A DNA stretch of 41,951 nt from sequence record DRR723986_6593; one strand, given 5' to 3'. Position 1 is the stretch's first letter, and the number at the start of each line of letters is the position of its first letter. Below are positions 20,662 through 41,951 of this stretch, piece by piece. A program made the position numbers and the translations under genes. A model generated the notes under the pieces. It ran no database searches. It worked only from the letters and a program-made list of their open reading frames with translations, and was not told where the DNA came from.

Positions 20662-21688
20662 TACAAGTGGCACTGTTTAAGTATTCTTCGGCTTTCTCCG
20701 ACCCTAAAATAAAGGCTTGTTCCCAATCAGAGCATGCTTCAGCTACATTACGCAGCATTTCGTTAGCAATTCCTCTATTGAAATAAGCCTCCATCATTTC
20801 ATTTTCAATGTCCAAAGCCTTGTTGCATTTATCTAAGGCTGATTCAAAATTATCCTGCTCTAAAAATATCGCTGCTTGATTAACGAGAATCACTGGGTTG
20901 TCAGCGTCTAAACTTTCAGCCTCATTGAAAACCGTTGCTGCTTCATCAATTTGACCAGTAGAATGCAGATAGTTCCCTTTTAAAATTAGCAGATTCACTT
21001 TTTCACTGTGATTAGCATTTTCTGCCGCTTTTGACATATAATCAAGCGCAGCAGTTGAATCCCCTTGCTCTAAAGCAACATTTGCTAAGTTTGATAAAAT
21101 GACAGCAGACTTTGGTTTAATGGTTAAGGCTTTTTCAAAATCTGCTCTAGATTTATCTAGCTCTACCATATTGTAATATGCACTGCCTCTAGCGTTTAAT
21201 GCTGACACACTATTCGGGTTTGCAGCAATAAATTTGTTCAAATTTTCAATGGCATCCCCATATTCTTCGTTCTTAGCCTGACTTTTACCTAAGTACAATA
21301 AATCCGTATTATCGTTAGAACCTAATTCAATTCCCTTTTGTAGGTAATAAGCCGCACTGTCGTAACTGTGGGTCTTGTAAAAACACTTGCCCAATTGACT
21401 GTAAATTGGGGCTTGAAATGGGTTGTTTGAAAAAGCACTCTTTGCATTTGACAATGCAGAAATGTAATCTTTCTCGCCGAATTTAATGTTTGATATACTC
21501 AGGTACGCTTCAGCATACCTTGGCTCGGCCTTAACGCACTCTTCAAAGAGATTCAACGCCTCAGAAGTATTACCATTTTTATATTCTTTTAACGCCTTGT
21601 TGTAGAGCTTTTTAGATTCAGACGAATATTTCGTCTGGCTAATCCCTACTAAAGGCAAGAACATCAATATGATAAGTAATCTTCTCAT
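20654..21688 (-). CDS. Exported tetratricopeptide-repeat protein (copy 2)
   Basis: Likely start ATG 21688 (MRRLL), signal peptide GIS/Q; successive 34-aa TPR units; C-terminal ACSDWEQAFILGS. Confidence 0.87.
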   Translation of the reverse strand: MRRLLIILMFLPLVGISQTKYSSESKKLYNKALKEYKNGNTSEALNLFEECVKAEPRYAEAYLSISNIKFGEKDYISALSNAKSAFSNNPFQAPIYSQLGKCFYKTHSYDSAAYYLQKGIELGSNDNTDLLYLGKSQAKNEEYGDAIENLNKFIAANPNSVSALNARGSAYYNMVELDKSRADFEKALTIKPKSAVILSNLANVALEQGDSTAALDYMSKAAENANHSEKVNLLILKGNYLHSTGQIDEAATVFNEAESLDADNPVILVNQAAIFLEQDNFESALDKCNKALDIENEMMEAYFNRGIANEMLRNVAEACSDWEQAFILGSEKAEEYLNSATCNE

Positions 21689-21708
21689 GAGCAATTAAAT
21701 AATAAGTG

Positions 21709-21716
21709 CGAATTTA
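21709..21716 (-). promoter_or_regulatory. Possible internal -7 element for the second TPR/PorE-like module
   Basis: Minus-strand TAAATTCG (one mismatch to TAnnTTTG), 20 nt upstream of ATG 21688. Confidence 0.4.
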
Positions 21717-21771
21717 ATATTTTCTCGCATAAAAGCTTTAAAATAATCGACTAGACTGCATTTTTTTTTGA

Positions 21772-23862
21772 TTAAATACTCAAGATCTTAAATTCAGTTC
21801 TTCTGTTTTGTTGATGAGCATCTTCTTTTTCAGTTTTAGATTTCATCCTAGATATTTCTTCATCACTGATCAAAGGTTTGGATTCTCCATATCCAGCGAA
21901 CTCTAGTCTCGATTTGTCAATGCCGTGAGAAATTAAATAGTCCACCACTGATTTTGCTCGATTCTGAGATAAGACCTGGTTGTCTGTTACTGATCCACGC
22001 GTATCTGTGTGCCCTGCCAATTCTATTCTCATTGTAGGGTTTTCATTCAGTAATGCAATTAACCTTTCTAATTCGTTAATAGATGCATCTCTCAATGAAT
22101 ATTTTGCATAATCATAGAAGATATTTCTGAGTACAATTGTTTGACCAACTTCGACTTTTTTCAAATCAACATCCTTTTTGTACTGCTTAAATCCACTAGC
22201 TTCAGGAATAACAAAATTCTCAGAGTGGAATAAATAGCCGTCCTTCTTTACAGCAATTCCATAGTTTTTACCTGCCGGAAGAGAAACCAAGTATTTTCCA
22301 GTTTTACTATCACTCATGAATTCTGCAATGATTTCATTTTTATCGTTATCAACCAGAACTACTTGAGCCTGTAATGGTTGTTTGGTTTTTTCGTCTCTTA
22401 TAATTCCAGTTAGAATAGCCATATTTGAACCTTCAACTACTAATTCTGGCTCTTTAATTTTTTCTTTAATCGGTTTAGCTATTGAGGCGATTAGATTGTC
22501 CTCATTCGAAAGCATTGGCGGTTTTTCAGGACCTAAAAATGTAATTAGGTAAATGTCTTTTTCACCGTATCCACCCTGTCTATACGAAGATGCATAACCA
22601 TATCTTCCGTTACCTGCAACAACTAACTGAACGTCATGATCAGGAGTGTTTAGAGGTGGTCCTAAGTTTACTGGTTTTTGCCATTCACCGTCAACAAGTT
22701 TCGAATAAAATAAATCCAATCCACCCATTGTATTGTGTCCGGTTGAAGAAAAATACATGGTTTCTCCATCAGGGTGGATAAATACAGATCTTTCTTCATA
22801 AGGTGTATTCAATACATTCCCAATGTTTACTGCTTCACCCCATTTTTCTTTTTCTTCGTTCCAATCGGCATAATAGATGTCGTGCATTCCAAATCCTGAT
22901 GGTCTATTTGAAGTAAAGTACAGACGCTTACCATCAAATGAAAGTGAGGCATCAGGTTCGTGTGCATCCGTATTGATCGTTTTTCCTAGCTGCTCTGGTT
23001 TAGACCAAGAGCCATCTTCGTCTGACGAGATGTAGATATCCCCATTTCCTTTTTTATCATTGTAAATGAACAAGGTGTGGCCATCAGGCGAAAGTCCGAT
23101 CGTTGCATCATGTTGACCTTGAACATTCAATGGTTTACCCATGCTCACTGATTTTGACCATTCTCCATTTACGCGTTTCGACTCGTACAGGTCTTCAAAA
23201 TATGCCCCGTCAGGAGATAGATCCTCGGATCCAGGTCTTCTTGCTGTGAATACCATAATAGCCTCATCTGCCGAAATTACGGGACCGTAATCAGGATACT
23301 TTGTGTTAATGTTTTCTCCTAAATTATCAATCCAAACTCTAGCTTTTTTATCAGCTAATTCTTGACCGTTTTTACATTCTTGCACCTTTTTAAACGCTGC
23401 TGTCTTCAAGGGTTGCAGTTCTGGAGCAGTTGCTTTTCCTGCAAATTGATTATAATAATCAATTGCTTTTTGCCACTCACCTTCAATGTGGTAAGATATT
23501 CCTATGTAAAAAAGAATATCGTTAGATACGGTTGGTTTCAAGCTATATGCCTTCTCAAAGTAGGGTTTCATTTTGTACTTGTCAAAGTTGAAATAGCACA
23601 TTCCAATTTTATAATTCAATTCTGAACTGTTAGGATTGAATTCATTGGCTTGAAGATATTCGGCCACGGCTTTTCTATAATCAACGGAATATGCCATAAA
23701 ATAAGCATCTCCCTCTTGTAAGTGTTTTTCGGCCTCTTTAAATTGGTCTTTTTGTTCTTTGAATAGTTTTTTATCAAATGGCGTTTCTACTTGTGAGTAA
23801 ACTGATGCTGCTAAGAAGAATACAGCCAAAGTAAGTCCTAAATTTTTCATTCTAATTCTCAT
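21772..23862 (-). CDS. PorE-like protein: TPR + PD40 + carboxypeptidase-regulatory-like + OmpA (copy 1)
   Basis: TAATG-coupled to the upstream TPR gene (alternative start 23850); signal peptide VYS/Q; PD40 repeats; OmpA NIFYDY, IELAGHTD, LSQNRA, GYGES and NRRTEF. Confidence 0.9.
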   Translation of the reverse strand: MRIRMKNLGLTLAVFFLAASVYSQVETPFDKKLFKEQKDQFKEAEKHLQEGDAYFMAYSVDYRKAVAEYLQANEFNPNSSELNYKIGMCYFNFDKYKMKPYFEKAYSLKPTVSNDILFYIGISYHIEGEWQKAIDYYNQFAGKATAPELQPLKTAAFKKVQECKNGQELADKKARVWIDNLGENINTKYPDYGPVISADEAIMVFTARRPGSEDLSPDGAYFEDLYESKRVNGEWSKSVSMGKPLNVQGQHDATIGLSPDGHTLFIYNDKKGNGDIYISSDEDGSWSKPEQLGKTINTDAHEPDASLSFDGKRLYFTSNRPSGFGMHDIYYADWNEEKEKWGEAVNIGNVLNTPYEERSVFIHPDGETMYFSSTGHNTMGGLDLFYSKLVDGEWQKPVNLGPPLNTPDHDVQLVVAGNGRYGYASSYRQGGYGEKDIYLITFLGPEKPPMLSNEDNLIASIAKPIKEKIKEPELVVEGSNMAILTGIIRDEKTKQPLQAQVVLVDNDKNEIIAEFMSDSKTGKYLVSLPAGKNYGIAVKKDGYLFHSENFVIPEASGFKQYKKDVDLKKVEVGQTIVLRNIFYDYAKYSLRDASINELERLIALLNENPTMRIELAGHTDTRGSVTDNQVLSQNRAKSVVDYLISHGIDKSRLEFAGYGESKPLISDEEISRMKSKTEKEDAHQQNRRTEFKILSI

Positions 23863-24962
23863 TATTTGTCTGTATTACAAGCTGGTCCATTAACATAATT
23901 TTCTGCGTTTTCCGACCCTAAAATAAATGCGTCCTCCCAGTCGGCGCAGGCTCCTTTTAAATCCTTCAACATTTCTTTGGCAATTCCTCTGTTTACAAAA
24001 GCTTCCATATACTCTGGTTCAAGCTCAAGCGCTTTATTGCAGTTTGAAACCGCTTCAGTATAGTTTTCCATTTTAATGAATACTGAAGCTTTGTTGTTGT
24101 AAGCATATGCGTATTTAGAATTGATTTCAATGGCTTTAGAATAATCACTCAAAGCTTCCTTATAATCTCCCTTTTCAAATCGAGCTGTTCCCCTGTTGTT
24201 ATAAGCCACGTAATACTTCGGGTCTCTTTTGAGCGCTTCAGTATAGTATTTTTCGGCGTTGGCAAAGTCTTTTTTTGCTTTGTAAGCTGAGCCTAAATTG
24301 TTATACGCGAAACTCAGGTAATTATCAAACTTGACAGCGTTTTTATAATCACTAATTGCACCATCTATATCTTCTATTTGCATTTTTGCTGAACCTCTGT
24401 CATTGTAGGCATAAGCGTAATCTGATTTCCTTTTTATCGCTTCATCAAATGATTTAATGGCCAATTCATACTGTTCCATCTGAAATTCAGCAACTCCTTT
24501 AAAATAAGGGTACTTTTCATCAGATTTATTTAAATCTGATGCCTGATCAAATGCTTTAGCTGAATTCTCGTAGTCCCCTTGATCCATATAACATTTTCCT
24601 TTGAAATAAGCGGCCTCATGAATGTTCGGGTCAATTAAAACTGTTTTGTTAAAATCTTTGATGGCCTCATCAAATTTTTCTAAACCTTGAAACGCTTGTC
24701 CGCGGTAAAAGTAGGCGTCAACGTACATTTCGTCCATCAAAATCACTTCTGTGAACAACTGAACTGCCTCCATGTATTTGTTAGCTGTGAATGCTGTAAC
24801 TCCAGAATTATATTTCTTCTGAAGGACTGGGTTTACAAGTCCCAAAGAGTCCATTGTTGATTGATCAACCTCAGATCCGCCAAGCGCTGTAGAATCTTGC
24901 TGAGCATGAGATGCCAACCCTGTCAATATTAAAGACAAGGCAATCGTAATTTTTTTCACCAT
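23862..24962 (-). CDS. Exported tetratricopeptide-repeat protein (copy 1)
   Basis: Signal peptide SHA/Q; many canonical TPRs (YAYAYNDRG, AYNNLG, AYNNRG); C-terminal ACADWEDAFILGS. Confidence 0.9.
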   Translation of the reverse strand: MVKKITIALSLILTGLASHAQQDSTALGGSEVDQSTMDSLGLVNPVLQKKYNSGVTAFTANKYMEAVQLFTEVILMDEMYVDAYFYRGQAFQGLEKFDEAIKDFNKTVLIDPNIHEAAYFKGKCYMDQGDYENSAKAFDQASDLNKSDEKYPYFKGVAEFQMEQYELAIKSFDEAIKRKSDYAYAYNDRGSAKMQIEDIDGAISDYKNAVKFDNYLSFAYNNLGSAYKAKKDFANAEKYYTEALKRDPKYYVAYNNRGTARFEKGDYKEALSDYSKAIEINSKYAYAYNNKASVFIKMENYTEAVSNCNKALELEPEYMEAFVNRGIAKEMLKDLKGACADWEDAFILGSENAENYVNGPACNTDK

Positions 24963-26131: not shown

Positions 26132-29100
26132 ATGAACAAATCTTTATTGCTCATATGTCTATTTTTTGTGGCGCACATTTCTCTTGCAGATGTTAAGCCA
26201 GAAGTTGTCTTAACAACGGGTCATTCTGATCAAATTAATGCTATGGTTACCAGCCCCAACGGCAGGTTTTTAGCTTCATCAGGAAATAATAAAATCATAA
26301 AAATATGGGAGATTGCCACCACCCAAGAATATCGAACTTTATCAGGGTATGATGGCAGAATGAATGAGATAATATTTAGCATGGATAATCGGCATTTAGC
26401 TGGCTTGTCTGATCAAGGAGAATTAATAGTTTGGGATGTATTATCTGGAGAAGAAAAATTTAAGTTAAATACAAGCACATCTTCGTTACAAGGCCTTGGG
26501 TTTTCAAAAGATGGTAAAAAGGTTTATCACGCTGGAGAGCGCAATACACTATCAGTATCAGTCTTAGCCACTGGTCAAACAACCTCGACAGAAATGTATT
26601 CAACGGCAATGGTGCTTGATACGAATAAACAGATTATTTACTCCTTAGATCACTTAGGTAAACTCAACTACTTTAACGTTGAATCTGAGTCATTTGTGAA
26701 AGAAGTGCAATTGTTCAAAGAGTTCAATTATCCTTTTTCCGGTATAGAGGTTTCTCCAGACGGTAAATATTTGGCATGTGGGTTCAATGATGATAAATTG
26801 AGGATTTATGATACGGACAAGCATCAGTTTGTTTATGTTTCGTCAAAGTTTGGTTCTAAAATTCAAGACATTGTTTTCGACCCTAGAAAACCTTATTTAT
26901 ACATTTCGGATGCTACAGGCTTAGTTACTGTTTTTGATTATAAGAAACAGAAATTGCTTCAAGAACATCAATCAGAAACGTTCACCGCTCAGTGTATTAC
27001 AGCTCATCCTGTTGGTGAGGTAGTTATTCTAGCCAACTTCGCAAGTATTAATTTCTATGATGTAAAGCGTAAAAAAGTATTCAAACAACTGAGTGGGAAA
27101 ACGACCAGAATCAGTTGGGTGGCACATAATCCTCAAAAAGAATACCTGGCTGTGGCCACGGATGATGTTAATATCCAGCTATGGGATTTAAAATTGAATA
27201 AGGTTGTTGAAAAATTCAGAGGATTTAAACCATGTGAATTTAGTTCTGATGGAAGGTTCTTGTTTTATCAAAACAGTCAGCTTGAAATTGGGATTTACGA
27301 TATAGATAAAGGAGTTGAAGTTCAAAGTTTAAAAACGAATTATCAACTGCAAATGTCTATGGCTGTTTCAGATGATGGGAAATATCTTGCAGGAGGTGGG
27401 TTGTCCACAGGAATTAATATCTGGGATTTAGAGAAAAACAAGTCGATAGGAATGTTAACAGGACATGCTGGAATTGTGACTTCTGTTCATTTTCATCCCA
27501 CCTTGCCTCTGCTAGTCTCAACTTCTTATGATCAAACTACACGAATTTGGGATATCAAAACCATGAAGGAAATTCAACGTTTTGAAGATCAAAAAATCTG
27601 CGTTTCAGAAGGAAAATTTTCTCCTGATGGCAAACTGTTAGCAACGGCAGCCTGGGACAAGACTATTTACATTCGAAATGTTGCAGATTGGACAACTAAG
27701 TATGTTCTTGAAGGTCATAAAAACATGATTAACTCTCTAGACTTCAATCAAGAAAGTTCCATTTTGGCCTCCGCAGCAGGCAATAACGCAGTTGCAGAAT
27801 TTGACAATTCGGTAATCACTTGGAATATGGCAACGGGAGAGCAATATTGTCAAATGAATGACCATAAAACCGCCTTGACTAAATTGATTTTTGATCAAAA
27901 TAATGGTCGGATTTATTCATCTTCAGAAGACGGAGAAATAAAAATTACTGAACCTAAAACGTGTGAAGTTGTTGCGACTTATGTTGGTACAACTGAAAAT
28001 GAATTCGCAATTTATACCCCAGACAATTATTACATGTCTTCTAGAAAGGCTCTTCAGGGAATGGCATTCAGATTAAACAACCGTTTGGTTGCTTTTGAAC
28101 AATTTGATATTTATTTGAACCGTCCTGATATCGTTGCCGAAAGGCTAGGGAAATCTTCTAGTCAGGTTATAAAAGCTTATAACTACTTGTTTAAAAAACG
28201 TCTTCGTAAATTGAATATTGAAGAAGGTGATCTCCAAATTGATTATGCAATTCCTAACATTTTGATTGAAACAAAACCTGAGTTGGTGACTGCGGAGCCT
28301 ATTCAAAAAATCTGGATTTCTGCTTGGGATGAAAAATATCACATACAGCAAATCAACGTTTTTGTAAATGATGTCCCCATTTTCGGTGAAGATGGATATC
28401 GACCAAATGGGAATGTGAAGTCACTTAAAAAAGAATTTGAAATCCCGCTGGTTGAACAAAACAATAGAATTCAATTTTCATGTGTTAACTCAAACGGTAC
28501 TGAATCTCTGTATGAAACTGTTGATGTTATTCGAGAAGGATCTGATGAAAAACACGACTTGTATATTGTGTCAATTGGCGTGTCTAACTATCAGGATAAC
28601 CGTTTTAATTTGACCTATCCGACTAAGGATGCCACGGATGTAATTGAAAAGTTGTCAGGAAGTACAATGGGTTATGGAAATGTTTATAAAAAATTATTGC
28701 TCGATTCGGACGTGACAGTTACTAATTTTAGAGAACTTTCAGATTTCTTTAAAGATTGTTCTCATGAGGATTTAGCCATAATTTTTATTGCCGGACATGG
28801 GGTACTTGACGCGAATTTCGACTATTATTACGGGACCTATGATATGGATTTTAATGAACCAGATAAAAAGGGATTAGCTTATGATCAAATTCATTCACTG
28901 CTCAATTCAATAAAGGCATATAAAAAGTTGTTGATTATGGATACATGTCATTCTGGAGAATTAGATAAAGAAGAAATTGAAGAAGGTCCTGCTCCTGAGC
29001 TTATTGAAGGAGATATTCAATTTAGGTCAGCAGGGGCTGGTGTAGCTAAAAAATCCGGGATGGGATTCGATAATTCAATATCATTGGTGCAAGATATTTT

Positions 29101-29383
29101 CTCGGATACCAGAAAAGGTTCCGGAGCAACAGTGATTTCGAGTGCAGGTGGGGCAGAATATGCTTTAGAATCTGATCAATGGAAAAATGGATTATTCACC
29201 TATGCATTACTTTCAGGATTGTCTAATTATCAAAAGGTTGGGAACGGAGATCCTCAAATATTGGTGTCTGAAATACGAGCCTATGTCTATAGCGTTGTTG
29301 AAGAACTTTCTAAGGGTAAACAAATTCCTTCATCACGAGAAGAAAATATTACACAAGATTACATTATATTTGGAAATAATTAA
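26132..29383 (+). CDS. Exported WD40-repeat + caspase-like (peptidase C14) protein
   Basis: Signal peptide; many WD40 repeats (GHSDQIN, LTGHAG, LEGHKN); C14 dyad FIAGHG (His889) and IMDTCHSG (Cys939); EYALES...NGLFTYALL and GKQIP. Confidence 0.9.
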   Translation: MNKSLLLICLFFVAHISLADVKPEVVLTTGHSDQINAMVTSPNGRFLASSGNNKIIKIWEIATTQEYRTLSGYDGRMNEIIFSMDNRHLAGLSDQGELIVWDVLSGEEKFKLNTSTSSLQGLGFSKDGKKVYHAGERNTLSVSVLATGQTTSTEMYSTAMVLDTNKQIIYSLDHLGKLNYFNVESESFVKEVQLFKEFNYPFSGIEVSPDGKYLACGFNDDKLRIYDTDKHQFVYVSSKFGSKIQDIVFDPRKPYLYISDATGLVTVFDYKKQKLLQEHQSETFTAQCITAHPVGEVVILANFASINFYDVKRKKVFKQLSGKTTRISWVAHNPQKEYLAVATDDVNIQLWDLKLNKVVEKFRGFKPCEFSSDGRFLFYQNSQLEIGIYDIDKGVEVQSLKTNYQLQMSMAVSDDGKYLAGGGLSTGINIWDLEKNKSIGMLTGHAGIVTSVHFHPTLPLLVSTSYDQTTRIWDIKTMKEIQRFEDQKICVSEGKFSPDGKLLATAAWDKTIYIRNVADWTTKYVLEGHKNMINSLDFNQESSILASAAGNNAVAEFDNSVITWNMATGEQYCQMNDHKTALTKLIFDQNNGRIYSSSEDGEIKITEPKTCEVVATYVGTTENEFAIYTPDNYYMSSRKALQGMAFRLNNRLVAFEQFDIYLNRPDIVAERLGKSSSQVIKAYNYLFKKRLRKLNIEEGDLQIDYAIPNILIETKPELVTAEPIQKIWISAWDEKYHIQQINVFVNDVPIFGEDGYRPNGNVKSLKKEFEIPLVEQNNRIQFSCVNSNGTESLYETVDVIREGSDEKHDLYIVSIGVSNYQDNRFNLTYPTKDATDVIEKLSGSTMGYGNVYKKLLLDSDVTVTNFRELSDFFKDCSHEDLAIIFIAGHGVLDANFDYYYGTYDMDFNEPDKKGLAYDQIHSLLNSIKAYKKLLIMDTCHSGELDKEEIEEGPAPELIEGDIQFRSAGAGVAKKSGMGFDNSISLVQDIFSDTRKGSGATVISSAGGAEYALESDQWKNGLFTYALLSGLSNYQKVGNGDPQILVSEIRAYVYSVVEELSKGKQIPSSREENITQDYIIFGNN

Positions 29384-31131: not shown

Positions 31132-34100
31132 TCACTGAATTACCAATTTCAGAATACTCAATTCCCCAGAGTTTAGATCCTTAAATCTAATAAAGTAGGT
31201 TCCTGATGCTATATTTCCAGTTAGATCAATGCTTGTAGATCCTGAATTTGAAAGAACCGAGTGAATTAATTTTCCACTTAAATCTACAATTTCGGCATTC
31301 CAACTTGATACATCCGTAATGATACTTAAGTTGCCTTTTGTTGGGTTTGGATAAACTTCAAAAAGATGTTGAGTCAATTCACCAATACCCGCACAGTCAC
31401 TTACCGCAATACCCATTGTTGATTGAGAAGGACAATTTCCAGCAATTGAGTAGGTGATCACCCATGCCCCCGTTCCAGCTAAACTCGGATCAAATTCACC
31501 TGTTGATGCATCAATACAAGAACCGCAATCTGCTGTCCATGTTCCGCCAGGAGTTGTTGACATCAATTGTTGAACACCTTCATAAATACAAAACGGCCCC
31601 GCAGGTTCCATGCTTGCGTCTTCAGCCTCATCAACTACAATATCCTCAGTATCCGTATCGCCGCACGAACCACTGATTGTATAAGTTACTGTATGTGTAC
31701 CTATGCCCGCAGCACTCGGGTCAAATTCACCTGTTGATGCATTTGTAATACCTGTTCCAGACCAAACGCCACCATTATCAACAGCAGTCAAATTAATTGG
31801 GCCAGATCCTAAACAAATAACTGAACTTGGATTGATTGTTGCATCATAACTCGTTGATACAACAACATCCAATTGGTCAGTGTCTCCGCACATTCCGGTA
31901 ATATCATATTGAATAGTGTGTGTTCCAACACCAGCCACAGCTGGGTCAAAATCAGTTCCTGAAACACCAGTGCCTGACCATGTTCCTCCTGCGTTTGCTG
32001 CTGTAAGGGCAACAATGCCGTCCGACAGGCATAGTGGCGCAATCGGGTCAATCGTTGCATCTGATTGTGGAGTTACCGTTGCAATAACTTCGGTTCTCTC
32101 TGATGTACATCCAGGGCTTTCTATCTCCCAATTGTAGAAGAAATAGTACCAATCTAATCCAGGGCTGGCTTGAGTAATAGTCACTTCGCCACCTCCAACT
32201 GTATATGGGTAAGATGGACCTGTATTGTTTCTATACAGGTCTTGCTGTGACCCGTTCAATGTTCCTAATTGTAAGTTAACTCCGACAGGAATATTAAAGT
32301 TTAATGTAATCGTTTGTTCTCCATCTGGAATATTCACAACTGCAGACTGGATGACTGATCCTGCATTATCTCTTAATTCAATGGTTCGGTTGCCAGCACC
32401 GTTTGCGTAAACTTTTACAGTTTTTAATACAACAGGAGCAACACAATCAAATACTAAATGCTGGTCTCCGTTAAAGAAACCGCCACCACCAAATGTGTTG
32501 TCAGCAGGGCCTAAATTTTGAGTGGCACCTGGGAATTGTTCCTCTACATAAAATGAAGTAGTAGTAGTTAACGGTGAAGTGTTATAGCTAGCTCCAGTAG
32601 ATAAAATTGGTCCTCCGTTTTGAGCAGCATACCAATTTAACGAACCGGAAGATCCAGTTGCCGTCAAAGCAGCTGAGTTACTTTCACAAACATTGTCACC
32701 AAGTCCAGTTGGAGCAGGAGGTAAATCGACATGAATGTAATTCACTTTTGTCACAACGTCAGAACCGTTAACATTCGTTGCGGTTAAAACTACAGTATAG
32801 TCACCGTTTACCGTATAGTCATGTGTTGGATGTTGGGCCGTAGATGAATTTCCATCACCGAAATCCCATAACCACTGACTCGGACCATCAGTACTTAAAT
32901 CTGTAAAGTTGATTTCACCATTACAAGTCGTATCTGCATCTGCCGTGAAATCTGCGGTCGGTGGTACTGTAGGTAAATTACAAGACCAATCAATTTGATA
33001 ACCTGCGTCTTCCACACCACCATCTGAATGGAAAACTATTGTAATTGAGGCGCCGGTTGAGCTGACAGTTGTTGGAATATTATTATTGCAATACGTATCG
33101 ATTAGTGGAGAGGCCGCTGAAGGACCGTCATAAACCTCTAAATAATCATAATTACAACTTCCGGATTGACCAGCCTCTACATCAAATAGCACAAAGTTTA
33201 AATCTACTGTAGCAGCGCCAATAGGAGATATTGTGATTTGTGCATCCTCATCAGCTCCATAATTCCCTGACGCTCCACCTGAATCGAATAATGTTCCGTC
33301 ACATTTAGTTTGTGTGGTTCCTGTTCCATTATTCGGCATATTTACGATACAAGCAACAGCCGTGTCAATCGTAATATAGTTCACAAATGTTGTTGTATCT
33401 ATTCCGCATAACCCACCGTCAGCAATTAATTGAACAGTATACTGACCTAAATTATTATAGGTGTGTGAAGGACTGATTGCCGTTGAACTGTTTCCATCAC
33501 CGAAATCCCAAGTGAAAGTAGTTCCGTTACTACTCAAGTTATTAAAATTAAACGTGGCTGGTGCAGCACAAGCCGAAGTAATCGGTGTGTCAAAATTTGA
33601 AATGATGGTCGATACATATGGCGTTCCAACTCCAACCGCATACCAAGCATTAGTTGTAGCTTCCACTTCCGGAGTACATCCACCAAATAAATCAATTGCC
33701 GATTGAATTGCGTAGAATCTAGCATCAGCGAATCCAGAACTTGCCGTTAAATACACCGTTAAATTTCTGAAAGCAATATCACTAGCATTATCGAATCCAA
33801 TTCCATTGACCGTATAAGCGTCTCCATTATCATTTGTGCCTGTTCCCCCGGTTACTAATAGGTAGTACCAAAAGTTTTGAACACCACTATTGGTATGAAC
33901 ACCACCATTATCTGCTCCTCCAAGAGGCGCCCAGTTATTCCCGAAATAAGTATCAGGATCTCCGTACGACCCAGGATTTGACATAGATCTTAAAGCAGAT
34001 CCGATATCTTCGCCGATCAACCAATTCCAATTCGTTGGACGCGCAAAGTTTTCTATAGATGTACCAAAAATGTCAGAGAAAGATTCGTTCAATGCCCCAG

Positions 34101-35310
34101 ACTCGTCTTGGTAAACAAGGCCCGCCGTGAAAGTTGTTAGCCCATGTGATACCTCATGACCCGCAATATCTAATGCTGTTAACGGGTTCCAACTTGCATT
34201 TCCATCCCCATAAGTCATCCTTTGGCCATCCCAGAATGCATTGGCATAATTCACATCATAATGCACATAGCTGTTCAATGCAAACCCATTTCCATCAATA
34301 GAATTTCTTTGATGTTCTAACCAAAAATAATCATAAGTCATTTCTGCCCCCCAGTGCGCATCCGTAGCATATTCATCTAGTTGCGGATTCACATTATCCC
34401 AAAAGTTATCGGTATCAGTGAAATCAACTGAAGCACCATAACTTGTTCCTTGTTGCATATTATAGGTGTTGACACCGTTTCCTCTGCCGCTTTCTCTCAA
34501 TCTGTAACTACCTCCAAAACTATCAGCAATTATTGTTTGTACACCGCTGTAGGCAGTTTGTGCAGTTCCTGTAACATCAACATGATGGAATACTTCGTCT
34601 TCATAAATAATTTCACCAGTAGAAGCATCAACATAGATATATGCTCTTGAAACTGGTTCATGGGCATAAATGTTAAATTTGTAAGCCAATCTAAAAGACC
34701 CATTCGTGTGCTGACCGTGTTTACTAATATTTACCAATTCTCCTGAAGGATAATAGGTTGCAGTCTCATCTCCTGTTTCTCTTTTTAAATGCGCTTCTTC
34801 TTGAGGTAATTCCCATTTGTAGATGTTGGCTCCAACGTGATCTAATGCCTTTTGCATAGCTGCCTGTTCTGTGATTGATGCGGCATTGGACTGAGCCAAT
34901 TGTGCATATATCAGTCCATTCATAGAATAAACTTTACCATTTTTGGAGTGTAAAATCCACACAGCATGTTCAACTGGTTTGCCATTATAGGTTTGCTGAT
35001 ATCGGTAATGTTTGTGCCCTAGTTGATCATTTTCAATATTGATCAACTTAAAGTCCATTGAAGAACTCAGTTTAAAACTGCTTTTCATCCAAGGCATGCA
35101 ATCATCCAAATCTAGTTCCTTACCCTGCTTAAATTTAAGGTAGGATGGAACTGAAGAGTGGTTGCTGGTTCTTACCATTTCAGCACTGCCAAACAAGTTA
35201 GCCGCTGCAGGACCTGTTAATACCTCTTGTGCAAATGATTGATGAGATTGGGCAAGAATAAGCATGCAAATAGCATACTTTAAACTTGTAAAAAGTTTAT
35301 TTTTTTTCAT
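31132..35310 (-). CDS. T9SS-secreted M4 (thermolysin-like) metallopeptidase with PKD, CUB, Ig-like repeats and type A CTD
   Basis: FTP/PepSY-like propeptide; NAFWDG, HEVSH, GALNESFSD and GGVHTNSG; two WDFGDGNSST PKD domains; CUB (YDYLEVYDG, FHSD); CTD VYPNPTKG...KLVIQ. Confidence 0.93.
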   Translation of the reverse strand: MKKNKLFTSLKYAICMLILAQSHQSFAQEVLTGPAAANLFGSAEMVRTSNHSSVPSYLKFKQGKELDLDDCMPWMKSSFKLSSSMDFKLINIENDQLGHKHYRYQQTYNGKPVEHAVWILHSKNGKVYSMNGLIYAQLAQSNAASITEQAAMQKALDHVGANIYKWELPQEEAHLKRETGDETATYYPSGELVNISKHGQHTNGSFRLAYKFNIYAHEPVSRAYIYVDASTGEIIYEDEVFHHVDVTGTAQTAYSGVQTIIADSFGGSYRLRESGRGNGVNTYNMQQGTSYGASVDFTDTDNFWDNVNPQLDEYATDAHWGAEMTYDYFWLEHQRNSIDGNGFALNSYVHYDVNYANAFWDGQRMTYGDGNASWNPLTALDIAGHEVSHGLTTFTAGLVYQDESGALNESFSDIFGTSIENFARPTNWNWLIGEDIGSALRSMSNPGSYGDPDTYFGNNWAPLGGADNGGVHTNSGVQNFWYYLLVTGGTGTNDNGDAYTVNGIGFDNASDIAFRNLTVYLTASSGFADARFYAIQSAIDLFGGCTPEVEATTNAWYAVGVGTPYVSTIISNFDTPITSACAAPATFNFNNLSSNGTTFTWDFGDGNSSTAISPSHTYNNLGQYTVQLIADGGLCGIDTTTFVNYITIDTAVACIVNMPNNGTGTTQTKCDGTLFDSGGASGNYGADEDAQITISPIGAATVDLNFVLFDVEAGQSGSCNYDYLEVYDGPSAASPLIDTYCNNNIPTTVSSTGASITIVFHSDGGVEDAGYQIDWSCNLPTVPPTADFTADADTTCNGEINFTDLSTDGPSQWLWDFGDGNSSTAQHPTHDYTVNGDYTVVLTATNVNGSDVVTKVNYIHVDLPPAPTGLGDNVCESNSAALTATGSSGSLNWYAAQNGGPILSTGASYNTSPLTTTTSFYVEEQFPGATQNLGPADNTFGGGGFFNGDQHLVFDCVAPVVLKTVKVYANGAGNRTIELRDNAGSVIQSAVVNIPDGEQTITLNFNIPVGVNLQLGTLNGSQQDLYRNNTGPSYPYTVGGGEVTITQASPGLDWYYFFYNWEIESPGCTSERTEVIATVTPQSDATIDPIAPLCLSDGIVALTAANAGGTWSGTGVSGTDFDPAVAGVGTHTIQYDITGMCGDTDQLDVVVSTSYDATINPSSVICLGSGPINLTAVDNGGVWSGTGITNASTGEFDPSAAGIGTHTVTYTISGSCGDTDTEDIVVDEAEDASMEPAGPFCIYEGVQQLMSTTPGGTWTADCGSCIDASTGEFDPSLAGTGAWVITYSIAGNCPSQSTMGIAVSDCAGIGELTQHLFEVYPNPTKGNLSIITDVSSWNAEIVDLSGKLIHSVLSNSGSTSIDLTGNIASGTYFIRFKDLNSGELSILKLVIQ
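31390..32061 (-). repeat. Three tandem ~75-aa Ig-like repeats in the M4 peptidase
   Basis: Units DA....C......L....GG.W.......FDP..AG.G...I.Y.I.G.C. The 22-mer TCAAATTCACCTGTTGATGCAT is identical at 31490-31511 and 31721-31742. Confidence 0.8.
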
Positions 35311-35512: not shown

Positions 35513-36682
35513 ATGCCAAAGATTTTAATTATTGATGATGAGAGAAGTATCAGACGAACACTGAAAGAAATTTTAGAGTTTGAAAGTTATGAAGTAGAAG
35601 CCGTTGAGGATGGAATTGCGGGGGTAAAAGAAGCAATGGCTAATCAATATGATGTGATTTTTTGTGATATTAAAATGCCACAAATGGATGGTATTGAGGT
35701 ATTGACAAAGTTGAAAAATGATGGTTTAGAAACGCCAATCATTATGATTTCTGGACACGGAAATATCGAAACTGCTGTTGAATCGATAAGAAGTGGAGCT
35801 TATGATTTTATTGAAAAGCCGCTTGATTTAAATAGAATTCTGGTTACAATAAAAAACGCTCTTGAAAAAACTGATTTAGTTGAAGAGACAAAAGTGTTGA
35901 AAAAAGTAATCAAGAGTCAATCAAAGCATTCGGCTATTGTGGGTGATTCAAAACCTATTCAAGCTATTCGTGAAATGATTGAGAAAGTTGCACCTTCAGA
36001 TGCGCGTGTTATGATAACGGGTCCAAATGGTTCTGGTAAAGAGTTAATAGCTCGTCAATTGCATGATCAATCAAATCGTAAAAAAGGACCGTTTGTTGAG
36101 GTGAATTGTGCTGCTATACCATCAGAATTAATTGAATCAGAATTATTCGGACATGAAAAAGGTGCCTTTACATCTGCTGTTAAACAAAAGAAGGGAAAGT
36201 TTGAATTGGCATCAGATGGAACATTGTTTTTAGATGAAATTGGTGACATGAGCGCTTCTGCTCAAGCTAAAGTGTTGCGTGCTCTGCAAGAGAATAGAAT
36301 TACCAGAGTAGGTGGAGAAAAAGATATTAAGGTGAACCCTAGAGTTGTCGCGGCAACAAATAAAGATTTACGTAAAATGATTGCTGATGGACAATTCAGA
36401 GAAGATTTGTTCCATAGATTATCAGTTATTGTAATTGAAAACCCTTCGCTTAACGATCGTTCTGACGATATCCCTTTGCTGGCTAATTATTTTATTGAGA
36501 AATTGTGTCAAGAACATGGAATGCCGCAAAAAACTTTCACAGATTCTGCCTTGAAAGCGTTACAAGCTGTTAACTGGACTGGTAATATCAGAGAGTTAAG
36601 AAATATTGTTGAACGTCTTATCATTCTGTGTGATGCAGAGATTTCAGACAAGGACGTAAAGACTTTCGTAACAACTAAATAA
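35513..36682 (+). CDS. NtrX-like response regulator (receiver + sigma54-type AAA+ domain, no evident C-terminal HTH)
   Basis: IIDDE, CDIKMP and FIEKP; Walker A GPNGSGKE, ESELFGHEKGAFTSA, LFLDEIG, FREDLFHRL and WTGNIRELRN; the protein ends shortly afterwards. Confidence 0.9.
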   Translation: MPKILIIDDERSIRRTLKEILEFESYEVEAVEDGIAGVKEAMANQYDVIFCDIKMPQMDGIEVLTKLKNDGLETPIIMISGHGNIETAVESIRSGAYDFIEKPLDLNRILVTIKNALEKTDLVEETKVLKKVIKSQSKHSAIVGDSKPIQAIREMIEKVAPSDARVMITGPNGSGKELIARQLHDQSNRKKGPFVEVNCAAIPSELIESELFGHEKGAFTSAVKQKKGKFELASDGTLFLDEIGDMSASAQAKVLRALQENRITRVGGEKDIKVNPRVVAATNKDLRKMIADGQFREDLFHRLSVIVIENPSLNDRSDDIPLLANYFIEKLCQEHGMPQKTFTDSALKALQAVNWTGNIRELRNIVERLIILCDAEISDKDVKTFVTTK

Positions 36683-37585: not shown

Positions 37586-39352
37586 CTATTTTTTACTGTA
37601 AATTTTTTGAACCAGATGGTCATACTTTTGCATGATCACTTTTCTTTTTGGTTTCATAGTTGGTGTAAGTTCTCCACCTTCAACAGTCCAAGCGCCGGCA
37701 ACTATTTCGAAAACTTTAATTTGTTCCCATTTCCCAAAGTTTTCATTGAATGAAGCTATTTCTTTAGCTATTCTATCTTTTAGTTCTTCACTATTTGCCA
37801 TTTCTTCGTAAGTCGATCCAAAGTTCACACCTTTTCTGCTAGCCCATTCTTTAACAAATTCAATATCCGGAACAACTAAAGCTGCAGGCATTTTTTGGTT
37901 TTCACCTATTACCATAATTTGCTCAATAAAACGAGATTCCTTGAATTTGTTCTCCATTACTTGTGGAGCAATATACTTTCCTCCTGAAGTCTTGAACATT
38001 TCTTTTTTACGATCCGTAATTTTCAAATACTCGCCTTCAACAAATGTTCCAATGTCTCCGGTATGGAACCAACCATCCTTATCGATAACTTCTGCAGTTT
38101 TTTCTGGTTGATTGTAGTATCCCATCATCACATTTGGTCCTTTGACCAAAATCTCTCCATCTTCAGCAATCTTTACGGTAACCTTATCAAGAACGGTACC
38201 AGTGGTCCCAATTCTAACTTTATTGTCCTTCTCCATGTTTACAGATATAACTGGAGATGTTTCGGTTAAACCATATCCTTCCATCACTGGAATTCCAGCT
38301 GCCATAAAAACACGAGCCAATCGAGGTTGAAGAGCGGCAGATCCACAAGCTACGGCCTCTACATTTCCACCTAATCCTTCTTGCCATTTCGAAAAAACTA
38401 ATTTTCTTGCAATTCCCAATTTGAATTTATACCATCCAGATTTTCCTACTACATCATATTCTTCACCTAACGACAAAGACCAAAAGAATAATTTTCGTTT
38501 TATTCCGGATAATGCGTCTCCTTTAGCAACAATTTTGTCATAAACCTTTTCAAGTAATCTTGGAACCGCCGTAAATACATTAGGTTTTACATCTTTCAAA
38601 TCATCCCCTATTGTATCTAATGATTCGGCAAAATAAATGGATACGCCAGTATATTGATACAGGTACATGATCATTCTTTCATAAACATGACAAACTGGTA
38701 AAAACGACAGTGATTTTGCATCTCTACCGACTGGTAATCTTGGTTCGCAAGCTTTAACATTCGACAATAAATTGTCGTGGCAAAGCATAACGCCTTTAGG
38801 GTTTCCAGTAGTTCCAGAAGTATAAATTAGTGTGACTAAGTCTTCACCTTTAATGGCTGCTTTTCTCTTTTCAACTTCGGCATCCAATTCCGCGTTAGGT
38901 GGCTCGCTTAACACTTTCCAGTTCGTTGCTCCTTTACAGTCAACAAAAGAATAAACATCTGTTAAGGTCGCAACCTCTCCCTTAATTGCATTGACTTTAT
39001 CTGCTAATTCCTGGTCTGACACTATACATAGTTTAACTGATGCATCATTGAAAATATAAGCGTATGATGCTGAATCAATAGTAGGATAAACCGGAACGCT
39101 TATTGCACCAACCTGCTGAATGCCGATATCGCATATATTCCATTCAGATCGATTATTAGAAATCATAGCAATTTTATCTCCAGGTTGGATTCCTAGTTTG
39201 ACTAAAGCACGACTGACACTATTCGCGTAGTTGATATAATCTTGTGTTGAAACTTTTACCCAATCTCCGACAACCTTATCTGCAAATGCATCTTCTTGTG
39301 GAAATTTTTCGTTTTGATAATAAGGTATATCAAATAATCGTTCTACGTTCAT
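37586..39352 (-). CDS. fadD: Long-chain fatty acid-CoA ligase (AMP-binding)
   Basis: IYTSGTTGNPKGV, SFLPVCHVYER, EGYGLTETSP, GWFHTGDIG, ITDRKKEMFKTSGGKYIAP and ELTPTMK. Confidence 0.92.
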   Translation of the reverse strand: MNVERLFDIPYYQNEKFPQEDAFADKVVGDWVKVSTQDYINYANSVSRALVKLGIQPGDKIAMISNNRSEWNICDIGIQQVGAISVPVYPTIDSASYAYIFNDASVKLCIVSDQELADKVNAIKGEVATLTDVYSFVDCKGATNWKVLSEPPNAELDAEVEKRKAAIKGEDLVTLIYTSGTTGNPKGVMLCHDNLLSNVKACEPRLPVGRDAKSLSFLPVCHVYERMIMYLYQYTGVSIYFAESLDTIGDDLKDVKPNVFTAVPRLLEKVYDKIVAKGDALSGIKRKLFFWSLSLGEEYDVVGKSGWYKFKLGIARKLVFSKWQEGLGGNVEAVACGSAALQPRLARVFMAAGIPVMEGYGLTETSPVISVNMEKDNKVRIGTTGTVLDKVTVKIAEDGEILVKGPNVMMGYYNQPEKTAEVIDKDGWFHTGDIGTFVEGEYLKITDRKKEMFKTSGGKYIAPQVMENKFKESRFIEQIMVIGENQKMPAALVVPDIEFVKEWASRKGVNFGSTYEEMANSEELKDRIAKEIASFNENFGKWEQIKVFEIVAGAWTVEGGELTPTMKPKRKVIMQKYDHLVQKIYSKK

Positions 39353-39432
39353 GAGTGTTTTTTTATTTGGATTTTCGTTATGACCAATTTACTACAAAAA
39401 TCCTTTGTTTCGAACACTTTGACTTAATTTTC

Positions 39433-39504
39433 GTAACTTGTAATTAATATATCGTTAAAAAAAATATTCGATAGTGTAACTTTTAGAGTAGTTAGATTGT
39501 TTTA
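39433..39504 (+). promoter_or_regulatory. Candidate autoregulatory ECF promoter(s) upstream of the sigma gene
   Basis: TGTAAC (39475-39480)-N17-TGTT and GTAAC (39433-39437)-N15-CGTT. Confidence 0.4.
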
Positions 39505-39547
39505 GCTGTTTGAAAGGGAATAATTAAATTGAATTTAAACCAATTTT

Positions 39548-40036
39548 TTGACTAGAAGAGAGTACAATACCACTGTTAATGAGTTCTCAGGAAGACTGTA
39601 TGGTTTTTCTGTGAAGTATCTTCAGAACTCAGAAGACGCAAGTGATATTGTGCAGGATGTATTCGAGAAATTGTGGAAGAACAGAAAAAAGGTGGAATTT
39701 GAAAAAGCGAAGTCTTGGTTATTTACTTGTGCACATAATGCCATGATTAATTTTATTAAGAAAAAAAGTCGCATGACTTATTCTGATGAAATGGTTTCAA
39801 ATGAGGTGCAAGAATCACATGCAAAATCTTATGAGATGCAAGAGGTGATTGAAAAAACCTTGAGCCAATTACCTCCTGTTCAAAAATCAATTATCCTACT
39901 AAGAGATTTAGAAGGATACAATTATAAAGAAATAGGTGAAATCTTGGACCTCACTGAGGCCCAAGTAAAAGTTTACCTTTTCAGAGCCCGCAAAAAAATT
40001 AAAAAACAGCTAAAAGATTTAACGATACTCGTATGA
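39548..40036 (+). CDS. ECF RNA polymerase sigma-70 factor
   Basis: TTG start; region 2 DASDIVQDVFEKLW...KSWLFTCAHN; region 4 LPPVQKSIILLRDLEGYNYKEIGEIL...VKVYLFRARKK. Confidence 0.94.
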   Translation: MTRREYNTTVNEFSGRLYGFSVKYLQNSEDASDIVQDVFEKLWKNRKKVEFEKAKSWLFTCAHNAMINFIKKKSRMTYSDEMVSNEVQESHAKSYEMQEVIEKTLSQLPPVQKSIILLRDLEGYNYKEIGEILDLTEAQVKVYLFRARKKIKKQLKDLTILV

Positions 40037-41793
40037 ATATTCCTGAAAATTTTGACAGGTGGATGTTTGATTACAACGAAGGAAACCTCTCTGGCGCAGA
40101 GATGGAGGCCTTTGAGAATTTCATGATTCAAAATCCGCAATTTGATGTTGACGCAGACGCTTGGAATCAAGCTTTTGTTGCCAACGAAGAATTTGTCTAT
40201 CCAAATGCTAGTGCATTACAAAAGGACAGAAAAGTTGCTGCCGCCTGGTATGGTTGGTCAGCTGCTGCGATTATCGCTATCTTATTAGGTTCGGTTTACT
40301 TTCTTGCGCCAAGTACAACTGAATTATCTACAAAACAAAACTCATCAACTGTTGAAACTGAAAAACAGCTACTACACTCTGCACTTACTCAATCAGAATT
40401 AAATGAGGATGAAATTAAAGCCAATTTATTGAATAGTTTGAATCAGTTTAACACCTCTAATTCAGGGGTAATGGCAGAAAATTCTGTAAATAATGTATTG
40501 CAGAATCCAAGCGTTGGAGTTAATTACTCGAATTCAAATGGATCTGATCCTTCAAATAATCAAACGGTGATTTATAATGGAGGTACTAATTTGGTTGACA
40601 ATGTAAACGGATCTACATCAACTGATGATCAAGCATTGATTGCTATGAATGATAATGTTGATAATTCTGTAACCTCCAATGGGACAAGCGTTAATAATGA
40701 CGCCTTAATTCAAGAAATCAATAAATTTGACTCAGAATTGAACAATTCCAAATATCAAGGAAATCCAGCAATTTCAGAGTCAGAATTTGATTTTAGCAAA
40801 AAAGAAAGCTACGATCATTCTTCTTGGCAAAATAAAGTCAAGAAAGTCTACCGAAAAATTGAAAGAATGTTCGACTATCCTGTAGGAATTACCAACTTGA
40901 GAGATCCAGAGTTACTGTTGCCAAACTCTAACATTGTAGCATTTAACCCAGCTTTTACAGGTGGAATGCTCTCTCCTAGGTTTGAATTGAATTATAGAAA
41001 TCAATGGTTAGGGTCTGATATGAATTCACAACAAATGAGCTTATCATTCGATAACTACGTGTATCAAATGAGAGGTGGTATTGGAATTACTTTAAATGCA
41101 AAAGATTATGGATTAGGAAAAATGGGAGATTATAGCGTAAATTTAACTTATTCTCCAAAAATCCTGCTCAGCAAAGATGTGGTTTTTGAACCTGCGGTAA
41201 AATTAACTATGGGAGCGCTCAACGTAAATGGAGATGCTTTAGAGTCTAACACTGCTTTTGAAATCGACAGAGGGCAAGTGTTTACTTCTCCAGAACAGGG
41301 AGCCTTGACTGGTAACCAGCAAATGTTCTATAAAGATTTCGGTTTAGGCTTTGTGTTGAATACGAAATGGTTTTACGCTGGATTCTCTGCTGACAACTTA
41401 AGCAAACATTACGCACAAGTATTTAATGAAGAAGGATCAACTACACCTCTTTTAACACCGGTTCAATATTCTGGGATAGTAGGATTCGATTATGAAGCGA
41501 AGAGAAGACCAAAAGATAAACCTCTTTCATTTAGTCCATTTGTTGCCTATCAACAATTTGGAACTAGAAAAGAACTTTGGGCAGGATCAAACTTTAGATT
41601 TAATTCATTCACTTTCGGTGGTTCAGTATCACAGAAAAAAGACTTTACAGCATCCGTAGGGATGAAATTCGAACGATTCAAACTCGTTTATCATTACGAT
41701 CACACACACTCTGCCGTGTTAGACAAGCAAATAGGCTCACACAACATTGGAATCAGAATTAACGGTAGAACAAAAAAGTCACGCATTAAATAA
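40033..41793 (+). CDS. Putative anti-sigma factor fused to a PorP/SprF-family outer-membrane barrel
   Basis: ATGA-coupled to sigma. N-terminus DYNEGNLS...FENFMIQNP; TM helix ~aa 68-92; N/S-rich linker; from aa 291 DPE...FNPAFTG...LNYRNQW...SFD...GGIG...DFGLG...FYAGFSADNL...SHNIGI. Confidence 0.8.
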   Translation: MNIPENFDRWMFDYNEGNLSGAEMEAFENFMIQNPQFDVDADAWNQAFVANEEFVYPNASALQKDRKVAAAWYGWSAAAIIAILLGSVYFLAPSTTELSTKQNSSTVETEKQLLHSALTQSELNEDEIKANLLNSLNQFNTSNSGVMAENSVNNVLQNPSVGVNYSNSNGSDPSNNQTVIYNGGTNLVDNVNGSTSTDDQALIAMNDNVDNSVTSNGTSVNNDALIQEINKFDSELNNSKYQGNPAISESEFDFSKKESYDHSSWQNKVKKVYRKIERMFDYPVGITNLRDPELLLPNSNIVAFNPAFTGGMLSPRFELNYRNQWLGSDMNSQQMSLSFDNYVYQMRGGIGITLNAKDYGLGKMGDYSVNLTYSPKILLSKDVVFEPAVKLTMGALNVNGDALESNTAFEIDRGQVFTSPEQGALTGNQQMFYKDFGLGFVLNTKWFYAGFSADNLSKHYAQVFNEEGSTTPLLTPVQYSGIVGFDYEAKRRPKDKPLSFSPFVAYQQFGTRKELWAGSNFRFNSFTFGGSVSQKKDFTASVGMKFERFKLVYHYDHTHSAVLDKQIGSHNIGIRINGRTKKSRIK

Positions 41794-41801
41794 GTAGAGG
41801 T

Positions 41802-41951
41802 ATGAAGAGAATTTTTACAATTTTAGCAGTAGCGGTCTCGTTTCAGGGCATGGCTCAAGATCCGGAATTTACACAGTTCTATGCCAATCCAATTTACTTG
41901 AATCCGGCAATGGCTGGTACTCATGGATGTCCTAGAGTAAATATTAATCAC
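41802..41951 (+). CDS. PorP/SprF-family T9SS membrane protein (3' truncated)
   Basis: Reads MKRIFTILAVAVSFQGMAQDPEFTQFYANPIYLNPAMAGTHGCPRVNINH: a signal peptide plus the canonical QDPxFTQFYxNPxYLNPA N-terminus. It is absent from the ORF track. Confidence 0.92.
   Translation, partial: MKRIFTILAVAVSFQGMAQDPEFTQFYANPIYLNPAMAGTHGCPRVNINH

Follow-up and report, generated by a model that had tools for sequence, protein, structure and literature searches.

A conserved ECF sigma factor gene unit encoding a candidate anti-sigma protein that ends in a PorP/SprF-family β-barrel

Organization of the three-gene unit

At the end of a 41,951-nt stretch of DNA from sequence record DRR723986_6593 (the whole stretch is referred to below as the window), three tightly packed genes on the + strand encode an extracytoplasmic function (ECF) sigma factor, a 586-residue fusion of a candidate anti-sigma domain to a β-barrel of the PorP/SprF family, and a stand-alone member of that same barrel family. 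The unit may link gene control to the machinery for type IX secretion (T9SS). The sigma factor gene (39548-40036, +), taken from the list of open reading frames (ORFs), specifies 162 aa from a TTG start and was identified by matches to Sigma70_r2 and Sigma70_r4_2 in Pfam and to NCBIfam model NF058625, which covers the sigma_PG0214/GFO_1088 family (142.3 bits, cut-off 130). Its TGA stop and the ATG of the next gene at 40033 share the letters ATGA, a 4-nt overlap already pointed out in a preliminary description of this DNA. The fusion itself (40033-41793, +) is read in one uninterrupted frame, again as first described. The third gene starts at 41802, the 8 nt past the fusion stop that had been reported for it, and runs off the window edge, leaving its 5′ end (41802-41951, +), which encodes a signal peptide with Gln at the mature end. 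This partial ORF matches the start of the Pfam profile PorP_SprF (E 1.4e-8). Sigma factor, fusion and stand-alone PorP constitute the unit, because their order is kept in the locus survey described below and the ORF that follows them lies on the opposite strand in most of the loci examined. A scan of 39300-41951 for sigma-70-type promoters and terminators stayed at chance level.

Architecture of the fusion protein

The N-terminal domain (N-domain; aa 1-66, 40033..40230, +) is hydrophilic and helical, and it is the most conserved portion of the fusion protein, with W10, F12, Y14, E16, G17, and L19 invariant. Modelled alone in AlphaFold2, this candidate anti-sigma domain forms three helices (7-16, 21-33, and 35-47) with predicted local distance difference test (pLDDT) values of 91-96. 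It is followed by a single transmembrane (TM) helix (aa 68-92, 40234..40308, +), which had been placed at these same coordinates by the preliminary description and is supported by both hydropathy and structure prediction. The best Kyte-Doolittle window falls at aa 74, within the sole strongly hydrophobic stretch of the protein, and AlphaFold2 predicts a helix over residues 69-90 in the whole protein and 68-95 in a domain-only model. Across 72 homologues, the 12 residues flanking the helix hold on average 4.11 Lys plus Arg on the preceding side vs 1.03 on the following side. This positive-inside charge bias places the N-domain in the cytoplasm, a predicted N-in orientation. A reading of the helix as a cleaved signal peptide was ruled out by that bias and by the 66 conserved residues that precede it. 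The hydropathy scan also found no second hydrophobic stretch ahead of the barrel in aa 96-300, where the highest 15-residue value is 0.22 vs 2.44 in the TM region, in keeping with the earlier statement that no internal signal peptide precedes the barrel.

Beyond the membrane helix lies a predicted periplasmic tether, rich in Asn and Ser and disordered (aa 93-221, 40309..40695, +), with pLDDT <50 at residues 92-121 and 131-219. The linker to the barrel as a whole amounts to 190 aa, of which 16.3% are Asn and 14.2% Ser, and so agrees with the long low-complexity linker first noted from the letters. In 72 homologues it measures 149-267 aa (median 178). Its sequence varies and its length changes little, which would fit a spacer crossing the periplasm. 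The tether leads into a conserved juxta-barrel region (aa 222-290, 40696..40902, +), recognized from the alignment and the AlphaFold2 model, that comprises a helix at 222-233, a Y..NP motif, an amphipathic basic helix at 265-281, and the motif YPVGL.NL. P245 and N288 are invariant among 35 sequences of this region, and K231, N244, P283, and L289 are kept in at least 90% of them.

The C-terminus of the fusion (aa 291-586 plus the stop codon, 40903..41793, +) is a PorP/SprF-family outer-membrane barrel, with its fold known from prediction. Here the profile search bears out the preliminary assignment. The PF11751 match spans aa 299-575 and takes in positions 14-272 of the 273-position profile (118.7 bits vs a cut-off of 22.3, E 4.3e-34), and NCBIfam TIGR03519 scores 120.2 bits (cut-off 90.55). 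In the AlphaFold2 prediction, residues 316-577 have a pLDDT of ~90, and ~14 strands can be counted from the DSSP elements of the model. Foldseek relates this model to FadL, TbuX, OmpG, and PorV (6h3i_F, 8gl6_F) at E 3e-6 to 7e-5. When read directly, the opening residues of the fused domain, RDPELLLPNSNIVAFNPAFTG, and those of the stand-alone PorP, QDPEFTQFYANPIYLNPAMAG, align without gaps, as had been proposed, and show 9/21 identities. The fused domain has no directly preceding Sec signal peptide; 290 residues lie ahead of it, and Arg stands in the place of Gln.

Conservation and distribution

A protein search yielded 317 relatives, of which 120 were listed. Query coverage is at least 98% in 110 of these 120, and the N-domain motif is present in 118, the other two (P0041 and P0093) being shorter pieces. 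When species-representative genomes were scanned for the N-terminal motif, 88 places were confirmed, and 80 loci were kept. Almost all belong to Crocinitomicaceae or other Flavobacteriales, and the cultured carriers of the unit include Crocinitomix catalasitica, C. algicola, and Putridiphycobacter roseus. The sigma gene lies directly 5′ of the fusion in 80/80 loci, and its stop overlaps the fusion start by 4 nt in 55/79 and by 1 nt in 15/79. The fusion is a single ORF in 75/80 loci (74 by phmmer and one, L078, by a profile at E 7.6e-15), is split in two (L021 and L055), and is cut by contig ends in three. Where enough downstream DNA is available, a stand-alone PorP gene follows in 65/66 loci, L078 being the exception. 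Full-length stand-alone orthologues have 320-330 aa and score 194.3 bits against PF11751. The ORF past the stand-alone gene is on the other strand in 9 of the 12 loci examined. The survey that the preliminary description had called for thus finds the fusion kept in relatives, together with both of its neighbours.

The idea that the fusion is an assembly artefact or a pseudogene joining two genes finds nothing in its favour apart from the two loci in which the gene is split. Single ORFs in 75/80 independent genomes, cultured species included, speak against it, as does a tree of 132 barrel sequences that groups all 73 fused barrels in a single clade (support 1.0). The probability of such an artefact is negligible, and the fusion is a conserved, functional-looking gene. 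Since the fused barrels form one clade at that support, the tree indicates a single fusion event.

The most divergent member, in L078 (8113-9900), consists of an N-domain followed by the barrel. Pfam gives no match for this protein, and its barrel was matched by the purpose-made profile only, at the E value given above; Pfam likewise gives no match for the relative P0192. The metagenome-assembled genome that holds L078 is labelled Saccharospirillaceae, and its bin may be mixed.

Identity of the N-terminal domain

The preliminary description took the N-terminus for an anti-sigma domain, and several results weigh against that assignment. No Pfam or NCBIfam profile matches the N-domain of the window protein, which is where the anti-sigma profile search proposed earlier came back empty. 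In particular, PF13490 (zf-HC2) has no match in the window protein, and the N-domain alignment contains no His/Cys motif of the H-x3-C-x2-C zinc type. Only 2/28 family members reach zf-HC2, at E 0.13 or worse. When the N-domain profile was run against sequences of the Protein Data Bank, only DotF appeared, at E 1.2, and Foldseek on the N-domain model returned nothing at E up to 0.001. ESM Atlas offers DUF4880, zf-HC2, and RseA_N at 0.81-0.87, below the level at which they would count as more than leads. Finally, the domain occurs elsewhere in tandem arrays, which are atypical of anti-sigma domains.

What did stand of the earlier claim is a remote similarity, accompanied by gene coupling. The best three Foldseek matches of the N-domain model, not significant at E 1.9-3.2, are chains of RslA and RsiW, from structures of these proteins in complex with their sigma factors. 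A more distant relative, P0279, passes Pfam zf-HC2 (26.4 bits, cut-off 22.2) over aa 7-28, which fall within the stretch that matches the N-domain (aa 2-62). Sub-threshold matches to positions 1-40 of the anti-sigma model NF010501 occur in 5/5 multi-repeat relatives (E 8e-7 to 8e-3), and to zf-HC2 in 3/5; one relative is annotated as anti-sigma factor RsiW by the Joint Genome Institute. On the basis of this remote, mostly sub-threshold similarity and the gene coupling, the N-domain is a candidate anti-sigma domain, and we take it, with moderate confidence, to be related to the class I anti-sigma domain but to lack zinc.

At E up to 1e-3, the N-domain profile retrieves 7546 representative proteins. 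Among the 138 newly found matches listed (P0121-P0258), 102 carry the domain in two to five tandem copies, followed by a single TM helix and a tail of ~200 aa, with no PorP barrel. The tails of these tandem-copy relatives end in a short strand-like motif and then basic residues. This large, uncharacterised, and often tandem family may be a widespread anti-sigma module of Bacteroidota.

The tandem arrays, along with the lack of a direct profile match to any anti-sigma family, could also be read to mean that the N-domain is not an anti-sigma domain at all. The protein would then be a PorP barrel tethered to the inner membrane and serving structurally, for example by linking T9SS or gliding parts from one side of the envelope to the other, and it would merely be co-transcribed with the sigma factor. 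We judge this very improbable, given that the sigma gene is upstream in every one of the 80 loci with overlapping stop and start in 71/79, that the zf-HC2 match in P0279 falls exactly on the N-domain, and that the weak structural and language-model leads all point toward anti-sigma N-termini.

Promoter motif and likely targets

A bipartite motif of ECF type, TGTAACTTTT-N13-TTGTTTTA, lies at 39475..39504 (+), 73 nt upstream of the sigma start. Its GTAACTT −35 element and 17-nt spacer resemble those of ECF promoters. The motif is present 40-85 nt upstream of the sigma start in 78/78 upstream regions, with TGTAACT at the matching place in all 78. The window holds one match, at 39475, where 0.01 would be expected by chance. 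The 1.24 Mb of window plus loci contains 82 matches, and all but four of them are at the sigma gene (78). A broader form for searching would be TGTAACTT-N12-16-TTGTTT. A relaxed promoter pattern gave three extra matches in the window, which were dismissed, all of them being inside coding regions.

Three of the four remaining matches are upstream of a third PorP gene (in L007, L068, and L015), and in a further locus, L016, the third PorP gene has a copy of the motif with one mismatch. All four loci that possess such a gene thus have the motif upstream of it, at a distance of 175-360 nt. The third PorP genes score 193-203 bits against PF11751. Their locus spans are 8851-12004 in L007, 7271-10400 in L068, 13002-14153 in L015, and 12997-14148 in L016. 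The L007 gene is followed by a 586-aa ORF with a DUF900 α/β-hydrolase domain, and L068 has a 578-aa ORF at the equivalent position.

Because the motif is upstream of the sigma gene in every upstream region and recurs at the third PorP genes, the operon is very likely autoregulated. Within the window and the loci scanned, the visible targets beyond the operon appear to be PorP-family genes only. A point against the mechanism proposed below is that the motif occurs nowhere else in the 42-kb window despite the T9SS cargo genes there.

Comparison with known systems

The closest architectural parallel is the Dma family (Pardue et al., PMC10927553). Its members are described as starting with a sigma-binding region, which is followed by a TM helix and a disordered tether, and as ending in an 8-stranded barrel. 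Dma1 is a single polypeptide that binds its own sigma factor and whose barrel is found in outer-membrane vesicles, and its authors propose signal-triggered proteolysis (PMC10927553). The preliminary description had cited Reo of Bacteroides fragilis as a precedent, rightly but with some understatement; Reo is an orthologue of Dma1 (PMC10927553). Dma1 and the fusion have their parts in the same order: an N-terminal region (sigma-binding in Dma1, a candidate for this in the fusion), a single TM helix, a periplasmic tether that is long and disordered, and an outer-membrane barrel (predicted in the fusion); in both cases an ECF sigma gene adjoins, and both occur in Bacteroidota (PMC10927553). The barrel of Dma1 is an 8-stranded OMP_b-brl_2 domain, in contrast to the PorP/SprF-family barrel of the fusion with ~14 strands by model count. 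The Dma sigma factors are assigned by ECF group (ECF21), whereas the window sigma is assigned by an NCBIfam model (NF058625). The Dma1 regulon concerns vesiculation (NigD1), whereas the visible targets here are PorP-family genes (PMC10927553). The likeness lies in the order of parts. On the structural counts examined, the fusion would work like a Dma, with an inferred span across both membranes.

With respect to the other side of its ancestry, PorP/SprF proteins serve as carriers for cargo with type B C-terminal domains (CTDs), as in SprF-SprB and PorP-PG1035 (PMC9143113, PMC12635249). The C-terminal 296 residues of the fusion pass both family models, are predicted to adopt a FadL/PorV-like fold, and keep the DP and NP motifs at the domain start. 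SprF needs a Cys-x-Cys tail for its bond with GldK (PMC12635249), in contrast to the fusion, whose C-terminal tail lacks cysteine. The fusion departs from these carriers in having neither signal peptide nor mature Gln, whose place is taken by the anti-sigma-like domain together with the TM helix and tether, and no adjacent cargo gene was found for it.

The FecA-FecR-FecI system leads from the cell surface to transcription by way of a barrel in the outer membrane, an anti-sigma factor in the inner membrane, and an ECF sigma factor. The unit would likewise bring barrel, anti-sigma, and ECF sigma factors into one signalling path, which for the fusion is a proposal (compare the discussion in PMC10927553). 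In Fec, however, barrel and anti-sigma factor are separate proteins in contact via a TonB-dependent transducer extension, whereas the fusion is one polypeptide and its barrel is not a TonB-dependent receptor. The PorXY-SigP system of Porphyromonas gingivalis resembles the unit in tying an ECF sigma factor to T9SS component genes (PMC7712824). SigP differs in that a response regulator, and no membrane anti-sigma factor, is described as controlling it (PMC7712824). It also belongs to another sigma family; the window sigma matches the model of the PG0214 family and not SigP.

The preliminary description knew of no PorP-type anti-sigma factor, and none was described in the literature searched, which did not extend to the supplementary Dma homologue lists; the text of the Dma2 preprint mentions neither PorP nor T9SS. 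Anti-sigma proteins with a barrel and a dual-membrane span are a kind recently described, and what sets the fusion apart is that its barrel is of the T9SS carrier family.

Divergence of the fused and stand-alone barrels

The two barrels of the unit, which share only ~21% identity, have followed different courses. Mean identity across the set is 67% for the stand-alone PorP vs 35% for the fused barrel, which evolves faster. The stand-alone protein has a signal peptide, a mature QDPEF start, and three conserved cysteines, two of them in a C-terminal tail that ends in ISCPSF. In L002 (11709-12683) and its orthologues, these cysteines appear as GCPR near the N-terminus and as C-x11-C in a tail with the ending FRTISCPSF. 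Of 75 fusions, 57 contain no cysteine, and the translation of the window protein has none either, its C-terminal tail included. Because these conserved cysteines are lost and its evolution is faster, the fused barrel may not behave as a working carrier. Liu et al. 2025 (PMC12635249) showed that a disulfide joins cysteines in the SprF tail to GldK, which belongs to the moving track; such GldK-bonding cysteines are typical of SprF and near homologues but do not extend to the PorP/SprF family at large (PMC12635249). By analogy, the stand-alone protein may possess a disulfide tail like that of SprF, such that the stand-alone barrel may be linked to the track and the fused barrel held by its tether instead. 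No type B CTD cargo gene was found adjoining the module, the flanking ORFs of the loci not having been scanned for CHU_C; in the window, the upstream neighbour is a divergent gene for an AMP-binding protein. Rapid divergence, cysteine loss, and the want of a cargo neighbour all count against the mechanism proposed below.

The rapid divergence and the cysteine loss would be expected if only the ability of the barrel to fold mattered, as in a generic sensor of envelope or barrel-assembly stress. The barrel would then report on the outer membrane or on the β-barrel assembly machinery (BAM), and its PorP ancestry would be irrelevant. An unassembled barrel would leave the tether exposed to degradation and so release the sigma factor, as proposed for Dma1 or as happens when RseA responds to unassembled porins. 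The authors of the Dma study indeed propose that these proteins sense outer-membrane perturbation (PMC10927553), and the lack of an adjacent cargo gene is compatible with such a role. On the other hand, the promoter motif is otherwise found only upstream of further PorP-family genes, and the operon always comes with a PorP carrier, which points to a PorP-specific circuit and not a general regulon. The conserved juxta-barrel region, moreover, suggests a specific contact. A generic stress sensor is accordingly rated unlikely.

It is also conceivable that the fusion is a pro-protein, its tether always cut after export. The barrel would go on to function like any type B carrier, and the remaining N-terminal piece would be degraded. 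Each molecule would then release one sigma factor, making the circuit a feed-forward loop coupled to synthesis instead of a sensor. C-terminal fragments of Dma1 of ~20 and ~17 kDa, which alone are found in vesicles (PMC10927553), offer a precedent for cleavage, and the barrel retains its family signature at 118.7 bits. Constitutive cleavage, however, hardly explains why an anti-sigma-like domain and a tether of 149-267 aa are conserved, and a simple signal peptide such as that encoded by the adjacent gene would serve equally well. Such a pro-protein is improbable.

Proposed mechanism

Starting from the observed domain order, conservation, gene coupling, and shared promoter motif, the reading toward which we lean, by a small measure, is that of a three-gene regulatory module in which a tethered PorP barrel controls an autoregulated operon supplying PorP-type carriers. 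The fusion probably keeps the sigma factor at the inner membrane, and its barrel probably extends to the outer membrane. The three-helix N-domain would retain the sigma factor at the cytoplasmic face, the single helix would serve as anchor in the inner membrane, the tether, with at least 149 disordered residues, would cross the periplasm, and the barrel would be inserted in the outer membrane, as experiments have shown for the Bacteroides thetaiotaomicron protein Dma1. If the barrel changed its state, for which failed insertion, contact with T9SS parts or cargo, and displacement are candidates, the result would be tether proteolysis and intramembrane cleavage. The freed sigma factor would transcribe its own operon from the TGTAACTTTT-N13-TTGTTTTA promoter, yielding more of the co-transcribed PorP carrier and, in some genomes, also of a further PorP paralogue with the same promoter. 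Because the operon and the paralogue share this promoter and both carry PorP, the supply of PorP-type carriers is the most likely output.

It is plausible, as a hypothesis, that the barrel senses T9SS status. One specific version would make the tethered barrel a decoy that engages the T9SS translocon or track in the way a normal PorP/SprF carrier does. When the motor-driven machinery dragged or expelled this decoy, the pull on the tether, or a failed release, would expose the tether to cleavage and thereby free the sigma factor. We consider this decoy scheme quite unlikely. If true, it would make sigma activity a mechanical report of T9SS throughput that sets the supply of real PorP carriers, and the fusion, as an anti-sigma factor that senses force or engagement, would be the first regulator that reads how a secretion motor is working via a tethered copy of the motor's own carrier. 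More generally, a barrel family with a defined job, as T9SS and gliding carriers, combined with PorP targets allows a concrete hypothesis on both sensing and control, and the module offers a possible route by which Flavobacteriales could adjust their supply of T9SS carriers.

Other genes in the window

Divergently upstream of the sigma gene lies the gene for the AMP-binding, acyl-CoA synthetase-like protein (37586-39352, −). A functional link by analogy with FadD and a FadL-like barrel was considered and dropped, because the gene is found in only 36 of the 68 loci with enough upstream DNA; its presence fits synteny within a closer clade. Four genes of the window encode T9SS cargo (2649-4508, 4739-8674, 14200-16374, and 31132-35310). 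Three of the cargo proteins have a type A CTD (Por_Secre_tail): one with lectin, PKD, and SprB-repeat domains, one with trypsin-like and GEVED domains, and an M4 thermolysin-like protease of 1392 aa. The fourth has a type B CTD (CHU_C), and the next ORF, of 200 aa and with no Pfam match, is not a PorP.

A sigma-54 activator of 389 aa (35513-36682, +) has receiver, AAA+, and lid domains and no DNA-binding helix-turn-helix match at E up to 1e-5. A protein of 1083 aa (26132-29383, +) combines WD40 propellers with a C-terminal caspase domain (Peptidase_C14) and is followed by a DUF6934 ORF. Lastly, positions 18544-24962 (−) contain two tandem pairs of genes, each encoding a TPR protein and then a protein with a PD40 β-propeller and an OmpA domain. 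This TPR/PD40/OmpA set recalls the T9SS protein PorE (PMC12773672), but here it is split over two genes and duplicated.

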